Notes under the pieces: model-generated
Told to the model about the DNA's origin: nothing
Seen by the model: only the letters and a program-made list of their open reading frames with translations
The model's database searches: none
In this document: piece after piece, positions 1 to 11,425 of the stretch
Layout of the letters: the number at the start of each line of letters is the position of its first letter
Numbering within the stretch: the stretch's first letter is position 1
Program-made: the position numbers and the translations under genes
IMG/VR virus record: IMGVR_UViG_2695420523_000016
Reading direction: 5' to 3' (one strand)
Length of the DNA: 11,425 bases
Source of the DNA: a virus
Lineage: Duplodnaviria > Heunggongvirae > Uroviricota > Caudoviricetes

Positions 1-71
1 GTGCTTTTGCCGTTACGCACCACCCCGTCAGTAGCTGAACAGGAGGGACAGCTGATAGAAACAGAAGCCAC
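1..71 (-). CDS. insA: IS1 InsA, N-terminal fragment (GTG start at 69-71 on the minus strand; gene continues beyond the window)
   Basis: Hand translation of the reverse complement of 1-71 gives (M)ASVSISCPSCSATDGVVRNGKS, matching the InsA N-terminus from memory. Confidence 0.75.
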   Translation of the reverse strand, partial: MASVSISCPSCSATDGVVRNGKS

Positions 72-126
72 TGGAGCACCTCAAAAACACCATCATACAC
101 TAAATCAGTAAGTTGGCAGCATCACC
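1..126 (-). mobile_element. IS1: IS1 insertion sequence, partial: terminal 126 bp ending in the left inverted repeat (IRL at 104-126); the element body lies beyond the window start
   Basis: Window 1-126 is the reverse complement of the IS1 left end as I recall it; 104-126 atcagtaagttggcagcatcacc is the reverse complement of IRL GGTGATGCTGCCAACTTACTGAT. The minus-strand reading of 1-71 gives the InsA N-terminus. Confidence 0.9.
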
Positions 127-727
127 TAAACCGAAGCTTAAAGAACAATTAATTCAGCTAGCAAATATACTTTCAGATGAAGACAATGAACTATCTGTAA
201 TTGACATGAATGATGATCCTGACGGTTATGGGTTTGATTGTTTGACACTTTGTTTTAGGGACCGTATGACTGGAAACATGCGTCAGGAGACTACTAAGGA
301 ATACACAAAATATAACCATCATTGGCAAAAAGGGGCAGCGTTATCAATTACCTATAGTGCAACGGGTGCAGTCCATATGATTATATTTCCTTCTACTTCT
401 GAAGACTCGCTAGCTAAACATGACTCATTGATTTTGCATCATTCATACAATGTAAAAGATATAACATCTAAAAAATTAGAGAAAGCTGTCAAAAACTTAC
501 TTCATTTCCATCGCGTGACAGGTGTTTTACATAAGGCAACGTTAATAGATGTCTTGATAGTAAAACTCTTGAGACTAAAAATGTATTTCATTCAATATGC
601 AGATAAAGAAAGTAAATTTAAAAGAGTTACTGCTCTGTATATACCCTTATTGAGTCTGCTAATATCACTATCTGCTGCTGTTGCTAGCATACTTGCATTG
701 ATAATAACTATGAAAAATGCAAGTTGA
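113..727 (+). CDS. Hypothetical protein with a C-terminal transmembrane helix; the 5' end is probably disrupted by the IS1 insertion
   Basis: 204-aa ORF in the track. The frame opens only after a TAA at 101-103 inside IS1, and the listed TTG start at 113 lies inside the IS1 IRL. The first in-frame ATG after the IS1 boundary is at 206. C-terminal hydrophobic stretch ALYIPLLSLLISLSAAVASILALII. No family recognised. Confidence 0.35.
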   Translation: MAASPKPKLKEQLIQLANILSDEDNELSVIDMNDDPDGYGFDCLTLCFRDRMTGNMRQETTKEYTKYNHHWQKGAALSITYSATGAVHMIIFPSTSEDSLAKHDSLILHHSYNVKDITSKKLEKAVKNLLHFHRVTGVLHKATLIDVLIVKLLRLKMYFIQYADKESKFKRVTALYIPLLSLLISLSAAVASILALIITMKNAS

Positions 728-800
728 GGTAACGATTACGGTATTGTACAAAAAAAGGTGGGCTTTATAATGGAAATATTCATGTATATGTGAGGCTGGT

Positions 801-1268
801 ATGAGTTTGGTGTCTTTAGCAACAAAATATAAAGATGTTTTAACTGTCGGATTTTCAATGGTATCATTTATTATTGCATGCACATCCTTGTTCTTTTCAG
901 GAAGAACTGCATGGCATGATAGAGCAAGATTAAAAATTAAAGGAAGAGTTGTATATGATGCCGTTTACAACAAAGCTTATAAAATTGAAGTTACAGTTCT
1001 CAATATTGGCAGGCGTGATGCTGTATTGGAAGGCATCCTTTGTCACTATGAGAGCGGTAAAACTAGGCATAGTTATGAAAAAGAAGGCATTGCAATTAAA
1101 GAAAAACAAAGGAAAGTATTCATTGTGGAAAATTTTGACCTGATCATTTCTGATGACGAAGGTGAGGTATATCAGCTAGAAGATATTACTATATTAGATA
1201 TTGAAGGGAAGGAGCATGAAATACCTAACTCTTATAATATAGTTTCCAAATTTATTAAAGATGTATGA
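801..1268 (+). CDS. Hypothetical membrane-anchored protein (one N-terminal TM helix plus a soluble domain of about 120 aa)
   Basis: 155-aa ORF; GAGG at 793-796 about 5 nt upstream of the ATG at 801; N-terminal hydrophobic segment VLTVGFSMVSFIIACTSLFF. No family recognised. Confidence 0.5.
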   Translation: MSLVSLATKYKDVLTVGFSMVSFIIACTSLFFSGRTAWHDRARLKIKGRVVYDAVYNKAYKIEVTVLNIGRRDAVLEGILCHYESGKTRHSYEKEGIAIKEKQRKVFIVENFDLIISDDEGEVYQLEDITILDIEGKEHEIPNSYNIVSKFIKDV

Positions 1269-1479
1269 TTCGGTAAATTGAATTCGGCTGTAAAATAGCA
1301 GTTGAACTGCTGCTTTCCCCGAGTAGTAGGAGGAATGAAAAGGGGCTTTATAAGGCACTATAGCCAAACGGAGATCGCAATTTATCGTCAAAGTACTGCT
1401 ATTCCTCAGATTCAGCCAATACGAGCAGCCAGTGAACTACGAAATCGTTTGTCACAGATACACAAATCAGGATAAAACG

Positions 1480-1540
1480 AGTTGTCACGGAGAAATATCT
1501 AATATATATAGATCTACTTGTAAATTCTTCCGTGACAACT
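1480..1540. repeat. Perfect 12-bp inverted repeat (agttgtcacgga / tccgtgacaact) around a 37-nt AT-rich spacer; operator-like
   Basis: 1480-1491 agttgtcacgga and 1529-1540 tccgtgacaact are exact reverse complements. The spacer contains tatatata and agatct. A related half-site (tttgtcacaga) sits at 1447-1457. Confidence 0.4.
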
Positions 1541-1615
1541 ATCTACTGCCTCGATCCAGTGATCATGTGCGTCAGAATGAGGACAATTAGATTCGGATAT
1601 GCTCAGATCAGATTG

Positions 1616-2326
1616 CTAAAATGTTATAAATAGTTTTCTCAAATCGCGGTCGTTTGAGAATATATAGTTCTTCGCTTCAAATAGATTATGAGCGTTTTTT
1701 ACAGTTAGAGGAATGATGCTTTTGAAGGAGCTATATGATTTTTGTCTTACATGTTCGAATTCTGACATTTTTAAGCCACGCAGGGTCATTATTATAGTTC
1801 TAATGGATTGAATTATAAGTTCTATGATATTGATTAAGCCAAAATGTATTTTATCGAACTCATGAACGGGCTTGTATCTGAATAACTTCATAGTGTTAAG
1901 GTCGTTTGCTAAAAGCTGAGTTGTGACTTCTAATTCAGTTATTGTATCAAGCAAATATGATTTCATTGATTCGAGAACCGAGTCCTTAAGATGATGGTCA
2001 TAGCCGTTGATTCTAAATTGATAATTTTTAAGTTTAAACTCCAATTCCTCTACGGTATTGAAAATTTTAGGGTAGTGTTGAGTTATTATTTGTTTTTGTA
2101 TTGTGTATGCGTCATCCCTATATTTCTCTTTTTGCCAGTTCGAATATACATAGCCAGCAAAGATGAGAGTGATGACGCTAGAGCCAGCACTTAACAAATC
2201 AGATACGCTCCCCCATTCGAAACTATCAGAACTAGAAAAGAGTACTTTAATGAAAGCTAATATCGCTACCCATAGAAGTACTATGACGGTAGCAACTAAC
2301 AATTTGTTCCATCCTTTAACTCTCAC
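1616..2326 (-). CDS. Hypothetical inner-membrane protein (two N-terminal TM helices, cytoplasmic helical domain of about 170 aa)
   Basis: 236-aa ORF with a GTG start at 2324-2326 and a weak SD. Hydrophobic segments LLVATVIVLLWVAILAFIKVLF and SSVITLIFAGYVY. No family recognised. Confidence 0.5.
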   Translation of the reverse strand: MRVKGWNKLLVATVIVLLWVAILAFIKVLFSSSDSFEWGSVSDLLSAGSSVITLIFAGYVYSNWQKEKYRDDAYTIQKQIITQHYPKIFNTVEELEFKLKNYQFRINGYDHHLKDSVLESMKSYLLDTITELEVTTQLLANDLNTMKLFRYKPVHEFDKIHFGLINIIELIIQSIRTIIMTLRGLKMSEFEHVRQKSYSSFKSIIPLTVKNAHNLFEAKNYIFSNDRDLRKLFITF

Positions 2327-2498
2327 ATTCTTAACCCGTAGCCTGGTTCATGGATGAAAAATTTTACCATTTGCAGTTATGTTTCGTAAATGATCATCGG
2401 AAAGTGATAATTTAACTTAAGTGGCAGTTGCAACGTAGTTAGGTGGAGTAGTGCTGGCTGAGATCACTATTTCTTTGAAAAAAACGGGGCAGGTTGCT

Positions 2499-2528
2499 TT
2501 GAACTGGTTAACATAGTGGGATTATAAG
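2499..2528 (+). promoter_or_regulatory. Candidate sigma70 promoter for the HNH operon (-35 ttgaac at 2499-2504, 17-18 nt spacer, -10 ttataa/tataag at 2522-2528)
   Basis: Hexamers read directly; positioned about 30 nt upstream of the SD AGGAGG at 2549-2554. A palindrome gaagta-g-tacttc at 2533-2545 overlaps the expected transcription start. Confidence 0.3.
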
Positions 2529-2558
2529 CACCGAAGTAGTACTTCAGCAGGAGGCGAT

Positions 2559-3287
2559 ATGAACAGAAAGCAATTCATCCAGTCACACGGAGCTACTTGC
2601 AGTAACTGGACGTGGAGTTGGTCATTTGTTAACCATGAAAAGAAGATGGTCATCTTTGGGTCATGGGATGTTGAGAGTGAGCATGAGCGATCTGTAATAC
2701 TCCGTGAGAAATGGGAATACAACTCAAACAACAAAAAACAACCGGGATACACCCAGGCTCTGGAACACATCAGGTTAGTCCATGAAGGCTACGAACTTTA
2801 CACCTTCAATATGGTTTTCGCAGAACATCCGGATAATCCCGAAATTGCAGTAATCAAAGATTTTGAGCGTAAATTAAACAAGCGATATCTTCGTAAAGAA
2901 GGCGTTGTTTGGTATGCAGACTTCTTACCTAATCCATTCCCCGATGAAATTCCTTCAGGAGAGAGTTTTGTTGAAGGTGCAAAGACTCAAGTAACAGTGA
3001 ACTACTACGAACGCGATCCAAAGGCCAGACAAGCCTGCATCCAGCATCACGGTACTACCTGTAAATGCTGTGGCTTCGATTTTGAGAAGGTCTATGGTAC
3101 ACATGGCCGTGGGTTCATTCATGTACATCACATCAAGCCGCTTCATACGATTGGGGAAAACTATGTAGTAAACCCCGTAACAGATATGATCCCATTATGT
3201 CCAAACTGCCATGCAATGGTACATCGTGGAAGCGGTGTACTTCCAATTGCAGACTTGAAAAAAAAAATGACATTATGGAGCGAGTAA
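2559..3287 (+). CDS. HNH-family nuclease: unassigned N-terminal domain of about 150 aa fused to a C-terminal HNH (McrA-like) motif
   Basis: 242-aa ORF with SD AGGAGG at 2549-2554. The C-terminal region CKCCGFDFEKVYGTHGRGFIHVHHIKPLHTIGENYVVNPVTDMIPLCPNCHAMVH shows the Cys pair, HVHH, and CPNCH-x3-H pattern of HNH nucleases. The N-terminal region (FIQSHGATCSNWTWSWSFVNHEKK...) matches no signature I can name. Confidence 0.85.
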   Translation: MNRKQFIQSHGATCSNWTWSWSFVNHEKKMVIFGSWDVESEHERSVILREKWEYNSNNKKQPGYTQALEHIRLVHEGYELYTFNMVFAEHPDNPEIAVIKDFERKLNKRYLRKEGVVWYADFLPNPFPDEIPSGESFVEGAKTQVTVNYYERDPKARQACIQHHGTTCKCCGFDFEKVYGTHGRGFIHVHHIKPLHTIGENYVVNPVTDMIPLCPNCHAMVHRGSGVLPIADLKKKMTLWSE

Positions 3288-4079
3288 ATGGATTTATCAC
3301 AATTGAGTAACGTCGAATTGATGCAACTGAATCAGTTGACGCTTGATGAGTTAGAACGACGAGAGGTTATCAGAACCAGAAACAATCCTATCAGTGAGTA
3401 CACTGAATGGCTGATTGCGGAAAAGATGCAAATGGTACTGGCTGCACCTAGTACTAAAGGGTATGACGCTACAACGATTGATGATCGAAAAATTCAGATT
3501 AAGTCTCGTAAGAATAATTTAAAAAACCGAACGTTAATTCTTGGAATTATCAGAAATTATGATCTGAACCAATTCGATGAACTCATTGCCGTAATATATA
3601 ACCATGATTTCTCAATTCGTTATGCTATATCCATACCACATGGATTAGTGAAGGAATATGGTTTTTATAATGAGCACCAGAATGGTTACACTCTAAGAAT
3701 CAGCAATTTATTACTTAATGATCCACGTGTAACAGATATCATTGAATTCATTGATCCAGACACTGAACGTTCAAAGGAAGAGATCACGGTGAAGCCAGAT
3801 TCAAACACTATTCGGGATGTACAGACAATAGGAATGCAGACATTTGTTGAGTACTATCAATATGTTGAAGGTGGAATGGACACAACTGATCTTGTTGAAA
3901 AGATGATAACTGACCATCCAGAGTGGAAGGAAAGTACTGCAAGAACAAAGGCATCTTCAATGCGAAGAGTATTCAAGAATGGCGACAACATTGAGGTACT
4001 AAAAATCATCTATAAGTCGAATCACCCAGCAATAACGCATGAGATTAAGAGTAAACTGATGACGCTTTGGGATAAATGA
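3288..4079 (+). CDS. Hypothetical protein, translationally coupled partner of the HNH nuclease; possible PD-(D/E)xK-like N-terminal region
   Basis: 263-aa ORF. Its ATG at 3288-3290 directly abuts the upstream TAA at 3285-3287, with GGAG about 9 nt upstream. The segment EYTEWLIAEKM...GYDATTIDDRKIQIKSR has an E...D...QxK spacing compatible with a restriction-endonuclease-like fold. No Walker A or methyltransferase motifs. Confidence 0.7.
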   Translation: MDLSQLSNVELMQLNQLTLDELERREVIRTRNNPISEYTEWLIAEKMQMVLAAPSTKGYDATTIDDRKIQIKSRKNNLKNRTLILGIIRNYDLNQFDELIAVIYNHDFSIRYAISIPHGLVKEYGFYNEHQNGYTLRISNLLLNDPRVTDIIEFIDPDTERSKEEITVKPDSNTIRDVQTIGMQTFVEYYQYVEGGMDTTDLVEKMITDHPEWKESTARTKASSMRRVFKNGDNIEVLKIIYKSNHPAITHEIKSKLMTLWDK

Positions 4080-4125
4080 ACAAAGTTTGGGTTATATTTT
4101 TGACACAAAAAGATATAATTGTAGT

Positions 4126-4175
4126 ACTTCCACCATTCGCATTTGGGTAGGTTTGTTTGGGCGATTGGTGGAAGT
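4126..4175. terminator. Imperfect 15-bp inverted repeat (14 of 15 pairing) with a 20-nt loop between convergent genes; possible terminator or protein-binding site
   Basis: 4126-4140 acttccaccattcgc pairs with 4161-4175 gcgattggtggaagt, with one mismatch. No clean T-run on the plus strand; a modest T-rich tract follows on the minus strand. Confidence 0.25.
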
Positions 4176-4178
4176 GTA

Positions 4179-4490
4179 TCAAAACGGTAATTCTCCCTGC
4201 TCACAAAACCATCCATCTTTATCATGCTGCTTATAGACTGCATTCTCACTACTCAGATATTGCAAACCTTCCAGTACTGAACATAGCTGCGTTTCCAGTA
4301 TGAACACGAAGCAAACACGCTCAATCGTGCCTAACCAGTAAGTACCTTGCTGGTGCTGGAAGAATACGCGATCCCCATATACAAACTTATCAAGGCTGTA
4401 TCCCCAATAGCAGACAGTAGCCCACTTGCCTAAATGTTCAAACTGCTGTGTACCGCTTTTGATTGCCGGATCAAAACCATTCTTGCCCAT
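4179..4490 (-). CDS. Hypothetical protein (103 aa)
   Basis: ORF in the track; GAGGG about 8 nt upstream of the ATG on the minus strand. By eye this stretch has higher GC than the flanking genes. No family recognised. Confidence 0.4.
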   Translation of the reverse strand: MGKNGFDPAIKSGTQQFEHLGKWATVCYWGYSLDKFVYGDRVFFQHQQGTYWLGTIERVCFVFILETQLCSVLEGLQYLSSENAVYKQHDKDGWFCEQGELPF

Positions 4491-4670
4491 GTTACACCCT
4501 CGCTACCGATACTGTTTATCCATACAGTTTGTCACCACATTTCGCACAGATCCAGCCATCAAGAGCACTTACCACTAAAAATGGTAGAAATTAAAATATC
4601 GATCATTTTAATTTGATCATAAGTTAAAAGTGATTAATTATCAATCAGTTATGGAAACTGAGAGAGCAAC

Positions 4671-5180
4671 ATGAAACTCGAACATTTGGCAATTCCGATC
4701 ACTTCATTGAATGGAAAATTACTCGGCGTTGAGCTGGAAACACGTGTACTTATAGATGGTTGCCGGGTGTTGGTTGGTATAGGTAAGGAAAGTGAATACA
4801 TACGTCACGTGGTCTATCAGAACCAGCTAAGAATGATTCAGGGCAAAGCCGCATGGTTTAAAGAAAAGGGGCTGTTGTGCGTGCTCAGTACTGGCAGGGG
4901 TACACGGTATGACGATCTACCATTCATACGGTACATGGCTGCTGAACCACTGCTAACCGACGGTTACGACGTAATACGACTAAATAGACGGTTCACTGAA
5001 GAACACATCGAAAGGCTGATTTTCCCGGTACTCATCAAGAACATCATGCAGTACTGCGACAAGGTGATCGTACAAGTCACTGGCAATAACAATCACAGGA
5101 TTCTACGAGAGTCGGGGATATGGGCAGTACAGGGAGAGTACAGGCCAATCCGCTTTGAACAATGCGAACAACTTCTATAG
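4671..5180 (+). CDS. Minimal or degenerate EAL-like protein (c-di-GMP phosphodiesterase-like fold, probably non-catalytic)
   Basis: 169-aa ORF with GAGAG upstream. The N-terminal PI-x-SLNGKLLGVELETR resembles the EAL-domain start motif (QPI...G.L.G.EALLR). The C-terminal VIVQVTGNNNHRILRESGIWAVQGEYRPI resembles the AEGVE...QGY motif with Glu replaced by Gln. The central DDFGTG region is absent. Confidence 0.5.
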   Translation: MKLEHLAIPITSLNGKLLGVELETRVLIDGCRVLVGIGKESEYIRHVVYQNQLRMIQGKAAWFKEKGLLCVLSTGRGTRYDDLPFIRYMAAEPLLTDGYDVIRLNRRFTEEHIERLIFPVLIKNIMQYCDKVIVQVTGNNNHRILRESGIWAVQGEYRPIRFEQCEQLL

Positions 5181-5190
5181 GGAAATAACA

Positions 5191-5514
5191 ATGAAAATAC
5201 TAATCGTCATGTTGGTAGTACTGCTCACATGCTGCGGCAGCGTACATCACTCATTCATGGATAAAGCCTTTGTAGGCACCGTAGATAACAAAGCTACAAT
5301 AGTACTGTTCGACGCTGGCACACGAAACGGGGTGAAGTACTACCGGCCTCAGTTTCATAGTGATTGTGGCCGCACCTACAATCCGATTTACCAGGTGGAC
5401 AATGGCAGTACTATGTGCTTAATACGAGATACACGTATTACTCATTTAAAATTATACAATATGTATATGGTTAAAGTTATTCCCAATGCAAACGACAGTA
5501 TCTATGAGAGGTAA
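5191..5514 (+). CDS. Putative small lipoprotein
   Basis: Signal peptide MKILIVMLVVLLTCCGS with a lipobox-like LLTC. I prefer the ATG at 5191 (AGGGA about 10 nt upstream) over the track start at 5155, which would put 12 residues ahead of the signal peptide. Confidence 0.5.
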   Translation: MKILIVMLVVLLTCCGSVHHSFMDKAFVGTVDNKATIVLFDAGTRNGVKYYRPQFHSDCGRTYNPIYQVDNGSTMCLIRDTRITHLKLYNMYMVKVIPNANDSIYER

Positions 5515-5691
5515 GGGGATAAAGACTGTGGTTGTATGTAATTAACAATCAATAAAAGAATACACTTAATCCTTCTAATATGGCTCTGACACCTGATGTA
5601 ACTTTTTAGTTGCAAAGTAAAATTTATGGTCCATAATCGATTTATATTGCTGGTTGGAGCAGGTTTAAACTAAGATAATTAATGGTGCGAA

Positions 5692-6153
5692 ATGAAAATT
5701 ACAGAAGAGTTAATTTATAAAACATTCAGTAATACCTTTGAAGGAACAATGATATTATTAAAGATTTCAATTCTTAGTACACTAATAACTTTATTCATTC
5801 TTATTAATGGTGCAGATCCTGGGGCGATAGAATCCATAAAGGTGGTCTTTGCTACACTTGCATTGTATGCGATGTCTGTAGGGATTGGCTTAGGTGCAAT
5901 GTTGCTTTCACCAATTACCTATAAAGTGGCTGATTGTTTCGAACTTAAAGCAAATAGCCCCTTATGCAAAGTGATTAGTATCGTATATGGGATGGTGTAT
6001 TTTGCTACAACATATGTAATAGCTACTTATTTGACTTATCTGATTACTGATAGTTATAGGACAGGAAAAGAATTAGTAGCTGTTTACGTAATTAGTACTG
6101 TGACAATATCTTTTATCCAAGCACGTCGTCTCTATAAACTCATTGGTCAATAA
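5692..6153 (+). CDS. Hypothetical integral membrane protein (about four TM helices)
   Basis: 153-aa ORF, AT-rich, with four hydrophobic segments (for example ILLKISILSTLITLFILI and LALYAMSVGIGLGAMLL). No family recognised. Confidence 0.5.
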   Translation: MKITEELIYKTFSNTFEGTMILLKISILSTLITLFILINGADPGAIESIKVVFATLALYAMSVGIGLGAMLLSPITYKVADCFELKANSPLCKVISIVYGMVYFATTYVIATYLTYLITDSYRTGKELVAVYVISTVTISFIQARRLYKLIGQ

Positions 6154-6182
6154 ACTGGCCGTGGTTATTGATGATTTAGTAA

Positions 6183-6202
6183 AGGCCCACAGAAGCGGGC
6201 CT
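6183..6202. terminator. GC-rich hairpin (aggccc / gggcct, 8-nt loop) between convergent genes; candidate terminator, more plausibly for the minus-strand gene
   Basis: 6183-6188 aggccc pairs with 6197-6202 gggcct. On the minus strand it is followed by a modest T-rich tract; no T-run on the plus strand. Confidence 0.3.
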
Positions 6203-6219
6203 GTTAATAATATATCAAA

Positions 6220-6579
6220 TTAAAATTCATCTAAAGTACTTCTTTTCTCGTCTATTACATTAAACTCTAAAAGTCCATCATTAACCTCAAAAGTAACGGT
6301 GGTTGAATATGAATCATCAATATCCATATCCTTACACATGTTATAAATGAAGTAGCTAATGCTATAATGCAAAACGTAGATATTTTCGTCTAAGTATTCA
6401 ATATCATCTATAATGAAATAGTCAGTAGATTGTGCTCTTGAATCAATGAAATCTAAATCAATATCCAAAATCTTTTTTAAAGTTATGTCACTATGATTTT
6501 TATCTAAGTAGTCATAGAGAATTTTTTCAGCTTCTTTCCCGTGGGTTGGAAGTGTTAAATTGAATGGATAGGTAGTCAT
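6220..6579 (-). CDS. Strongly acidic small protein (119 aa) in the moron position upstream of terS, on the opposite strand
   Basis: ORF in the track with AAGG upstream. By hand count about 26 Asp+Glu against about 9 Lys+Arg. No family recognised. Confidence 0.5.
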   Translation of the reverse strand: MTTYPFNLTLPTHGKEAEKILYDYLDKNHSDITLKKILDIDLDFIDSRAQSTDYFIIDDIEYLDENIYVLHYSISYFIYNMCKDMDIDDSYSTTVTFEVNDGLLEFNVIDEKRSTLDEF

Positions 6580-6753
6580 TACATAAACCTTTAGTCAAAT
6601 AATTAATGGTTAACTTTATAAGTACTAAAATAGCATGATGAATTAAAATATTCAATGAAAAGAGAAGGTACTCCCAACACAACTACCAATACGCGAGTTT
6701 TCGGCACCGAATGCTTTCATTCGTATGTGACATTTTAGATGTACACAAAACAT

Positions 6754-9193
<2,440 letters not shown>

Positions 9194-9205: not shown

Positions 9206-11425
<2,220 letters not shown>

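Follow-up and report, generated by a model that had tools for sequence, protein, structure and literature searches.

What do two directly abutting genes, the first of which ends in an HNH nuclease motif, contribute to the cargo of a prophage? The question is raised by a stretch of 11,425 nucleotides from a Caudoviricetes virus (IMG/VR record IMGVR_UViG_2695420523_000016), hereafter called the window, in which two open reading frames (ORFs), ORF1 and ORF2, follow each other without a gap between positions 2559 and 4079. An initial annotation, made from the letters of the sequence, had described them as a translationally coupled operon of an HNH nuclease and an unassigned partner, and had proposed a modification-dependent, type IV-like nuclease or an uncharacterized two-component anti-phage module. 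Its core observation, two abutting ORFs of 242 and 263 amino acids with an HNH motif at the end of the first, is confirmed by the ORF listing and the sequence. The reading favored here, to which a probability of roughly 0.7 is given, is that the two genes form a bicistronic cassette, carried in the cargo of a degraded prophage, and encode orphan modification-dependent nucleases that act independently. The genes and their domains are as follows.

2559–3287, plus strand: ORF1, 242 amino acids; sensor-like N-terminal domain, linker and McrA-type HNH domain; predicted type IV modification-dependent restriction endonuclease.
2559–2933, plus strand: ORF1 N-terminal domain, residues 1–125; alpha/beta, with the motif N16-W17-x-W19-S20-W21-S22-F23; predicted sensor of DNA or modified bases.
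2934–2999, plus strand: ORF1 inter-domain linker, residues 126–147; predicted local distance difference test (pLDDT) score below 50, with a variable, gapped alignment.
3000–3284, plus strand: ORF1 HNH (beta-beta-alpha-Me) nuclease domain, residues 148–242, with a CX2C...CX2C zinc site.
3288–4079, plus strand: ORF2, 263 amino acids; by homology an Eco15I-type, BisI-family type IIM modification-dependent restriction endonuclease.
3288–3752, plus strand: ORF2 nuclease domain, residues 1–155; PD-QxK fold with catalytic E40/D60/Q70/K72.
3801–4076, plus strand: ORF2 C-terminal six-helix domain, residues 172–263, homologous to the C-terminal domain of Eco15I (Eco15I_Ctd).

ORF2 is not an unassigned partner, as it falls in the characterized and crystallized BisI/Eco15I family (PMC4926085; PMC11347163), for which PADLOC already has a model: mREase_II ("type II methyl-directed restriction enzyme") matches residues 1–154 with an E-value of 3.4e-61. 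A phmmer search against PDB recovered Eco15I (8q5m) at an E-value of 1.6e-32 and NhoI (8q5n) at 6.9e-19, and full-length BLASTP against Eco15I gave an E-value of 2e-43 with 31% identity overall and an alignment running through residue 244. The residues E40, D60, Q70, and K72 are invariant or nearly so in the ORF2 clade and align to E49, D69, Q79, and K81 of Eco15I, mutation of any of which abolishes the activity of the Eco15I N-terminal domain, Eco15I_Ntd (PMC11347163). The C-terminal domain shares the invariant residues G18, F22, Y25, R55, L74, and S80 with Eco15I_Ctd in the alignment, and PHROG 24787 matches ORF2 along its full length. On the strength of this homology, the fold, the chemistry, and the BisI family membership of ORF2 are regarded as settled. 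The profile searches that the initial annotation had proposed as a check place ORF2 confidently in a known family, while only the HNH third of ORF1 is recognized by the profile libraries.

The homologues of ORF2 are named "hypothetical" or "DUF6998 domain-containing" in RefSeq because Pfam labels the nuclease domain DUF6998 (PF22522). This family is the BisI/Eco15I nuclease domain, with Eco15I reaching 37.3 bits on the Pfam model (cut-off 27), and no paper mentioning DUF6998 was found in the literature search. The naming of ORF2 is an annotation gap rather than the mark of an unknown protein, and its DUF6998 homologues can be renamed putative restriction enzymes dependent on 5-methylcytosine (5mC) or 5-hydroxymethylcytosine (5hmC). 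The END-nuclease family described in a preprint was also considered and is unrelated.

The BisI family is known to cut G5mC^NGC carrying two to four methylated or hydroxymethylated cytosines, inside the site, and its enzymes act as homodimers without base flipping (PMC4926085; PMC8281217; PMC11347163). Eco15I, and also its N-terminal domain alone, cleaves methylated GCNGC in vitro (PMC4926085; PMC11347163), and BisI-type enzymes coexist with Dcm-like methylation (PMC4926085). The internal methyl pocket published for the family consists of a dipeptide (H/R)(V/I/T/M) together with an arginine from the proximal subunit. This dipeptide is H139-V140 in Eco15I and NhoI and H130-Q131 in ORF2, where Q131 is invariant in 27 of 27 clade members, so that the second position lies outside the published set; the pocket arginine is kept (R89 in ORF2, R98 in Eco15I, and R101 in NhoI). 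The external pocket of NhoI (R84, Q96, and S98) makes mostly main-chain contacts, and the published analysis finds that only roughly half of the BisI family members retain R84. ORF2 keeps this arginine as R74, with Q96 replaced by I84 and S98 by G86. The H-Q pocket lowers the confidence in an identical specificity, not in the family membership of ORF2 by homology.

The other half of the cassette, ORF1, combines a recognizable nuclease with an unmatched N-terminal domain. The McrA-type HNH motif noted earlier at its end is borne out: ORF1 has C168/C171, H188-V-H190-H191, C214-P-N216-C217-H218, and H222, each of them invariant in 40 homologues; the aligned proteins come from Enterobacterales, Pseudomonas, Verrucomicrobia, Omnitrophica, and Ignavibacteria. 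The HNH family of Pfam scores 28 bits on ORF1 (cut-off 21.4), the PADLOC model mREase_IV matches with an E-value of 1e-7 over model positions 182–257 of 277, and EcoKMcrA (6ghc) matches residues 131–233 with an E-value of 1.8e-6, or 6.4e-9 in the profile comparison. NCBIfam gives a weak match to a phosphorothioate-dependent endonuclease (E 1e-3) within the HNH region only, the PHROGs label for the region is "HNH endonuclease," and JGI annotates ORF1 homologues as McrA, a label that rests on the HNH domain. Structural neighbors of the HNH domain are EcoKMcrA (score 6.3), Cap5 (6.2), and TagI (5.8), as well as Cas9. Sequence comparison puts EcoKMcrA closest to the ORF1 HNH domain. ORF1 was nevertheless rejected as a McrA orthologue, since the matches to 6ghc cover the HNH half only and the NEco domain is not matched; it is McrA-like in its nuclease alone. 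Other viral contigs encode related HNH modules (approximately 50% identity to residues 125–242) fused to the readers EVE and DUF3427 or to a domain resembling the C-terminal domain of the RNA-polymerase alpha subunit. Locus L026 additionally encodes a divergent 302-amino-acid HNH protein (2535–3443, minus strand) whose similarity to ORF1 is confined to the HNH half; its gene precedes that of a full-length ORF1 homologue by approximately 560 bp and is encoded on the other strand.

The N-terminal 125 residues of ORF1 matched no Pfam, NCBIfam, PADLOC, or PHROG family, and the Pfam scan returned no sequence match to SRA, EVE, or ASCH. This is the most conserved part of the protein, with N16, W17, W19, S20, W21, S22, F23, F33, G34, W36, W52, and H70 invariant, and AlphaFold predicts a confident alpha/beta domain for residues 1–125 (pLDDT approximately 90), followed by a disordered linker (126–147) and the HNH domain. 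The closest structural neighbors of the predicted N-terminal domain are SUVH5 (score 5.9, over 96 residues at 3.2 Å), ScoMcrA SBD-SRA (5.8), and UHRF1 (4.6–4.7), followed by AbaSI (4.6), LpnPI (4.5), PvuRts1I (4.5), SauUSI (3.8), and MspJI (3.7). The best of them are all SRA-type readers of modified cytosine, and the matches are weak and thematically consistent. Foldseek against PDB returned nothing at an E-value of 0.001 or below in support of an SRA assignment, and the term "SRA-like" is a lead from the predicted model, not a result.

Domain architecture supports a sensor role more strongly than these fold matches. A HMMER scan of 1.84 billion representatives with residues 1–125 gave 259 clusters at 50% identity, 171 of them at an E-value of 1e-10 or below, comprising stand-alone proteins of approximately 125 amino acids as well as longer fusions. 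According to Pfam, the fusions combine EVE, the N-domain, and HNH (P0206), EVE and the N-domain (P0209), the N-domain and NOV_C/DUF3883 (P0223), and VWA and the N-domain (P0229). NOV_C/DUF3883 is the PD-(D/E)XK nuclease of YenY4I/McaZI enzymes (PMC6765204), and type IV modification-dependent enzymes are defined by just such mixing and matching of sensors and nucleases (PMC6765204; PMC11347163). The N-domain may reasonably be put forward as a new domain for reading modified DNA.

Taken as two restriction enzymes, the cassette could work as follows. By analogy with its family, an ORF2 homodimer would read densely 5mC- or 5hmC-modified GCNGC-like sites in the intact duplex, without base flipping, and would cut within the modified site, perhaps with a specificity shifted by the H-Q pocket. 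The architecture of ORF1 suggests that its N-domain docks on modified DNA and that the tethered McrA-type HNH/zinc finger cuts nearby. The two genes would be co-transcribed and their translation probably coupled, neither protein would require the other in the cell, and the host would gain two distinct barriers to phages whose cytosine is exchanged for a modified form. Together they would broaden the protection of a lysogen against cytosine-substituted phages. E. coli is normally Dcm+. SRA-HNH enzymes, TagI and MsiJI among them, are toxic to cells that are Dcm+ (PMC6765204), so the presence of ORF1 in E. coli suggests that it ignores sparse Dcm marks and that its target may be 5hmC, glucosyl-5hmC, or dense modification. 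The earlier view that a modification-dependent, type IV-like enzyme fits the locus is upheld for both genes, given the EcoKMcrA-like HNH domain of ORF1 and an ORF2 family that cuts only multiply 5mC/5hmC-modified GCNGC. Equally, the locus is not a classical restriction–modification system, a reading that the initial annotation had already disfavored. No methyltransferase domain was found in the scanned ORFs of the window or in the gene tables of the related loci, and a type II system, which would need a cognate adjacent methyltransferase, was rejected on this ground.

Whether the two genes depend on each other can be judged from their distribution. Among 5,426 complete E. coli genomes, 10 have the pair, at two separate locations. 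In one genome the locus adjoins yeaG and lies in the element to which the window also belongs, with its serine recombinase and terminase (95% identity), and in nine the pair lies in an ffs-adjacent island (83% identity), where the homology block corresponds to window positions 2556–4112, almost exactly the two genes, making a 1.55-kb cassette. A Buttiauxella locus has the pair beside a CI-like repressor, Leclercia has it with a frameshift-split ORF2, and further pairs contain a short ORF2 of 156–157 amino acids, without the C-terminal domain and with a 1-nucleotide overlap with ORF1. The pair does therefore recur in other genomes, which the initial annotation had proposed to check, though not obligately.

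An ORF1-seeded scan of IMG/VR gave 28 loci with a full-length ORF1, and ORF2, sought within 4 kb, was abutting in three, one gene away in one, and absent from this distance in 24. For instance, L018 and L019 are otherwise syntenic and have ORF1 copies that are 98% and 97% identical, of which L019 has ORF2 and L018 a different gene in the slot. Relatives of ORF2 likewise occur apart from ORF1 (loci L013, L093, L006–L008, and L014–L016, and the Eco15I-type loci L099 and L100), including those of Escherichia sp. ESNIH1 (60% identity), L093 (59–61%), and L006–L008 (41%), and those in three distant phyla (39–45%). The Eco15I-type locus has an XRE regulator upstream, as originally described, and no ORF1. 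The contig scan for ORF2 relatives used narrow peptide patterns and gave four loci, which is not an exhaustive census. Where the genes do meet, a third gene stands between them in L003 and L028, and a gap of 186 nucleotides in L092. Measured against the window, the two genes show discordant amino-acid identities in different loci (97/85, 90/84, and 45/61%), which indicates recombination between them. In L021, L035, and L037, ORF1 overlaps a gene for a membrane protein of 151–155 amino acids by 4 nucleotides, and in L092 the same gene family abuts ORF2; tight junctions are characteristic of the hotspot rather than of the pair. Pairing is seen both with ORF2 forms that bear the C-terminal domain and with forms that lack it. 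The cassette is recurrent but not obligate.

Two observations on ORF2 relatives were made in passing. L006 (6001–6810; P0146, also in L007 and L008) encodes the homologue of 41% identity, which keeps the C-terminal domain and has three of the four catalytic residues changed (E40L, D60N, and K72L). Its gene has no HNH neighbor and follows genes for an EAL-domain protein and a LuxR/GerE-like protein; the product may be a BisI-like protein that has lost catalysis and been repurposed. Of the small stand-alone homologues of Eco15I_Ctd, those looked up (L099, 3483–4345; L100, 3471–4345; L101, 3547–4339) are not genes of their own; each is the downstream half of a long-form gene that a frameshift has split.

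Several points weigh against two independent modified-cytosine restriction enzymes. No characterized member of, or biochemical data for, the ORF1 family were found in the literature searched; the pocket changes of ORF2 mean that its specificity may differ from GCNGC/5mC; and the two genes have been passed on together in no fewer than three settings (the serine-recombinase element, the ffs island, and the Buttiauxella locus), which could reflect a functional linkage. In the ORF2 clade at 65% identity or more, all loci examined have ORF1 upstream. An obligate two-component system, in which the proteins form a complex or act in sequence (ORF2 recognizing, and the ORF1 HNH cutting or extending the cut) and neither protects alone, would account for the movement of the cassette as a unit among three contexts and for a TAA/ATG junction or 1-nucleotide overlap kept in both the window-type and the short-form pairs, and the C-terminal domain of Eco15I, which has no assigned function, leaves room for partner binding. 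Such a system is decidedly unlikely, however, as only 4 of 28 ORF1 loci have ORF2 nearby, ORF1 stands alone in most loci even at 98% identity, relatives of ORF2 and Eco15I stand alone too, Eco15I and Eco15I_Ntd need no partner for activity in vitro, the ORF2 C-terminal domain does not track with ORF1, the two genes are separated in L003, L028, and L092, and ORF1 is equally tightly coupled to the unrelated membrane-protein gene. The earlier idea of an uncharacterized two-component module is weakened by the same evidence, and no known multi-gene PADLOC defense system was retained, the mREase_II and mREase_IV models being the only ones matched. A stricter form, in which the ORF1 N-domain is an unrecognized class of modified-DNA sensor and the two proteins are in addition interdependent in a true two-nuclease defense system, the BisI-like enzyme marking or nicking densely modified sites at which the HNH enzyme is recruited or activated, is very improbable.

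The N-domain of ORF1 might read something other than modified cytosine, such as phosphorothioate, N6-methyladenine, hypermodified thymine or guanine, or DNA structure, in which case the two genes would cover different classes of invader. The missing sequence relation to SRA, EVE, and ASCH, the weak fold similarity to SRA, the NCBIfam phosphorothioate hit, and the residence of ORF1 in E. coli despite the toxicity of TagI and MsiJI in Dcm+ cells all point this way, but the best structural neighbors are without exception cytosine-modification readers, the N-domain co-occurs with EVE, and JGI calls the homologues McrA, albeit from the HNH domain; on balance a non-cytosine reader is unlikely. The remaining explanation makes ORF1 a phage housekeeping HNH, whether a terminase-associated packaging enzyme or a homing endonuclease, with ORF2 as unrelated cargo. 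The small and large terminase and the portal are encoded 2.7–6 kb downstream, and the PHROGs label is simply "HNH endonuclease," yet the terminase is of the lambda gpA type and itself contains a nuclease domain, approximately 2.7 kb of genes in mixed orientation lie between ORF1 and terS, and ORF1 has 242 amino acids and a conserved extra domain as against the small packaging HNHs of, e.g., 124 amino acids (PMC4926085). Members of the ORF1 family moreover occur widely in bacterial, non-phage genomes from many phyla, ORF1 is found in the non-phage ffs island, and no full-length ORF1 occurs in 50,697 GenBank phage records, making this explanation extremely improbable. A packaging HNH like gp74 of HK97 was rejected on size, the extra domain, the distance to terS, and the terminase type.

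Two independent orphan nucleases have close parallels among known systems. Eco15I (E. coli 541-15; PDB 8q5m/8q5o, with NhoI as 8q5n/8rpx) shares with ORF2 a PD-QxK nuclease of approximately 155 amino acids, a helical C-terminal domain of approximately 100 amino acids, the positions of the catalytic E/D/Q/K, the orphan state without a methyltransferase, and a mobile element with IS1 nearby; it differs in sitting behind the XRE regulator without an HNH neighbor, whereas ORF2 lies directly behind an HNH gene. ORF1 resembles EcoKMcrA (NEco-HNH), TagI/ScoA3IV (SRA-HNH), and VcaM4I/TspA15I (EVE-HNH) in having a predicted sensor, a flexible linker, and a C-terminal HNH with CX2C...CX2C, in its size (approximately 240–290 amino acids for the group), and in being an orphan gene without a methyltransferase. 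Similarly, the N-domain relative P0223 has the sensor plus NOV_C/DUF3883 layout of the YenY4I/McaZI-type DUF3427-DUF3883 nucleases (PMC6765204). Unlike the reader domains of the HNH enzymes, the N-domain of ORF1 has no detectable sequence relation to NEco, SRA, or EVE and forms a family of its own. The E. coli K-12 immigration control region (mcrBC-hsd-mrr) is a variable acquired region in which complementary restriction functions stand side by side, and pEFER is said to carry BREX together with a type IV island. In contrast to such clustered regions, two small single-chain nucleases here share an operon with abutting frames and travel together as a cassette.

The signals noted around the operon are listed here.

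2499–2528, plus strand: possible sigma-70 promoter; -35 TTGAAC at 2499–2504, 18-nucleotide spacer, -10 TATAAG at 2523–2528.
2549–2554, plus strand: Shine-Dalgarno sequence AGGAGG of ORF1, 4 nucleotides 5' of the ATG at 2559.
3277–3280, plus strand: Shine-Dalgarno sequence GGAG of ORF2, inside the 3' end of ORF1 and 7 nucleotides 5' of the ATG at 3288.
4126–4175, strand not assigned: stable hairpin between ORF2 and a convergent minus-strand ORF (4179–4490).

The TAA of ORF1 (3285–3287) is followed directly by the ATG of ORF2 (3288–3290), and the strong Shine-Dalgarno sequence described earlier is present. The proposed promoter matches 9 of 12 consensus positions, but the conserved final T of its -10 hexamer is missing and a consensus scan called no plus-strand site upstream of ORF1; it is plausible only. 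The hairpin reported after ORF2 exists, with arms of 15 nucleotides each (4126–4140 and 4161–4175) that are 93% complementary and a predicted fold of 4080–4200 with z = -2.4 against shuffled sequences. It has no T-tract on the plus strand and was not called in the terminator scan, and it is no canonical intrinsic terminator. The regulatory elements of the operon as a whole are plausible only.

The element around the cassette is prophage-like, integrating via a large serine recombinase, with the window covering its cargo region and packaging module. Window positions 23–7284 are identical (100%) to positions 1–7262 of the IMG/VR contig UViG_2695420412_000018, and the GC content is 31–47%. Three packaging and head genes were assigned.

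6789–7370: terS.
9206–9736: head-tail joining protein gene.
9721–11241: portal gene.

The gpA-type (lambda) large terminase carries an ATPase domain in addition to its nuclease domain, which contradicts the earlier statement that the window has no ATPase motif; a search for an ATPase partner of the cassette found no other. The terminase gene, terL (7285–9193), is split by a frameshift near 7781–7806, with residues 1–159 of an intact homologue in frame 1 (7330–7806) and 151–621 in frame 2 (7781–9187), and is either a pseudogene or the product of a sequencing error. The portal gene (9721–11425 region) reads into an IS1 copy at approximately 11160–11425, in which the C-terminus of InsB lies on the minus strand (11176–11421). 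The description of the locus as phage-derived cargo flanked by insertion sequences holds for the phage-derived cargo; only one insertion sequence, this IS1, is visible in the window. The element is thus a degraded prophage in which the nuclease cassette remains intact.

In sister elements (L001, L003, L006, L009, L021, and L091), the region from the recombinase to the terminase is a variable cargo hotspot. Its contents differ by member, with DarTG (DarT+Macro) and other cargo of defense type; EAL, DUF2971, DUF3800, Tlde1, RipA, and Hcp are among them, as is a group II intron. The integration sites also differ, being beside yeaG, inside ybhA, or beside a radical-SAM gene. The 50,697 GenBank phage records gave no DNA match, no ORF2 protein match, and only HNH-domain matches for ORF1.

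Three further gene families recur in these hotspots. The first encodes predicted membrane proteins of 151–156 amino acids (window 801–1268; L021, 4720–5187; L035 and L037, 4729–5184; L033, 4826–5293; L092, 4689–5159), with no match in Pfam, PADLOC, or PHROG; its gene stands upstream of ORF1 in the window and after ORF1 or ORF2 in sister elements. The second family, of 191–226 amino acids with a C-terminal hydrophobic segment (window 113–727; L018, 4325–5005; L003, 5321–5896; L028, 4096–4767), has no assigned protein family; it fills the ORF2 slot in L018 and lies between ORF1 and the short ORF2 in L003 and L028. Divergent from ORF1, a 236-amino-acid ORF (1616–2326, minus strand) has a weak PADLOC match to Csm6 (E 2.7e-4, residues 40–220), and its homologues, at 27–66% identity, occur near ORF1 in many sister elements.

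What is new at this locus is a BisI-family member with an altered methyl pocket and a variant of the sensor-HNH layout with an unnamed N-terminal domain. The value lies mainly in annotation and enzymology, and the understanding of restriction is unchanged. The ORF2 clade with its H-Q pocket could supply a BisI-type enzyme with an altered modification preference, useful in epigenetic mapping, and the ORF1 N-domain could be screened biochemically at low cost, in the manner of Lutz et al. (2019; PMC6765204). For the biology of the prophages, the cassette shows cargo hotspots stacking several putative filters against cytosine-modified phages.

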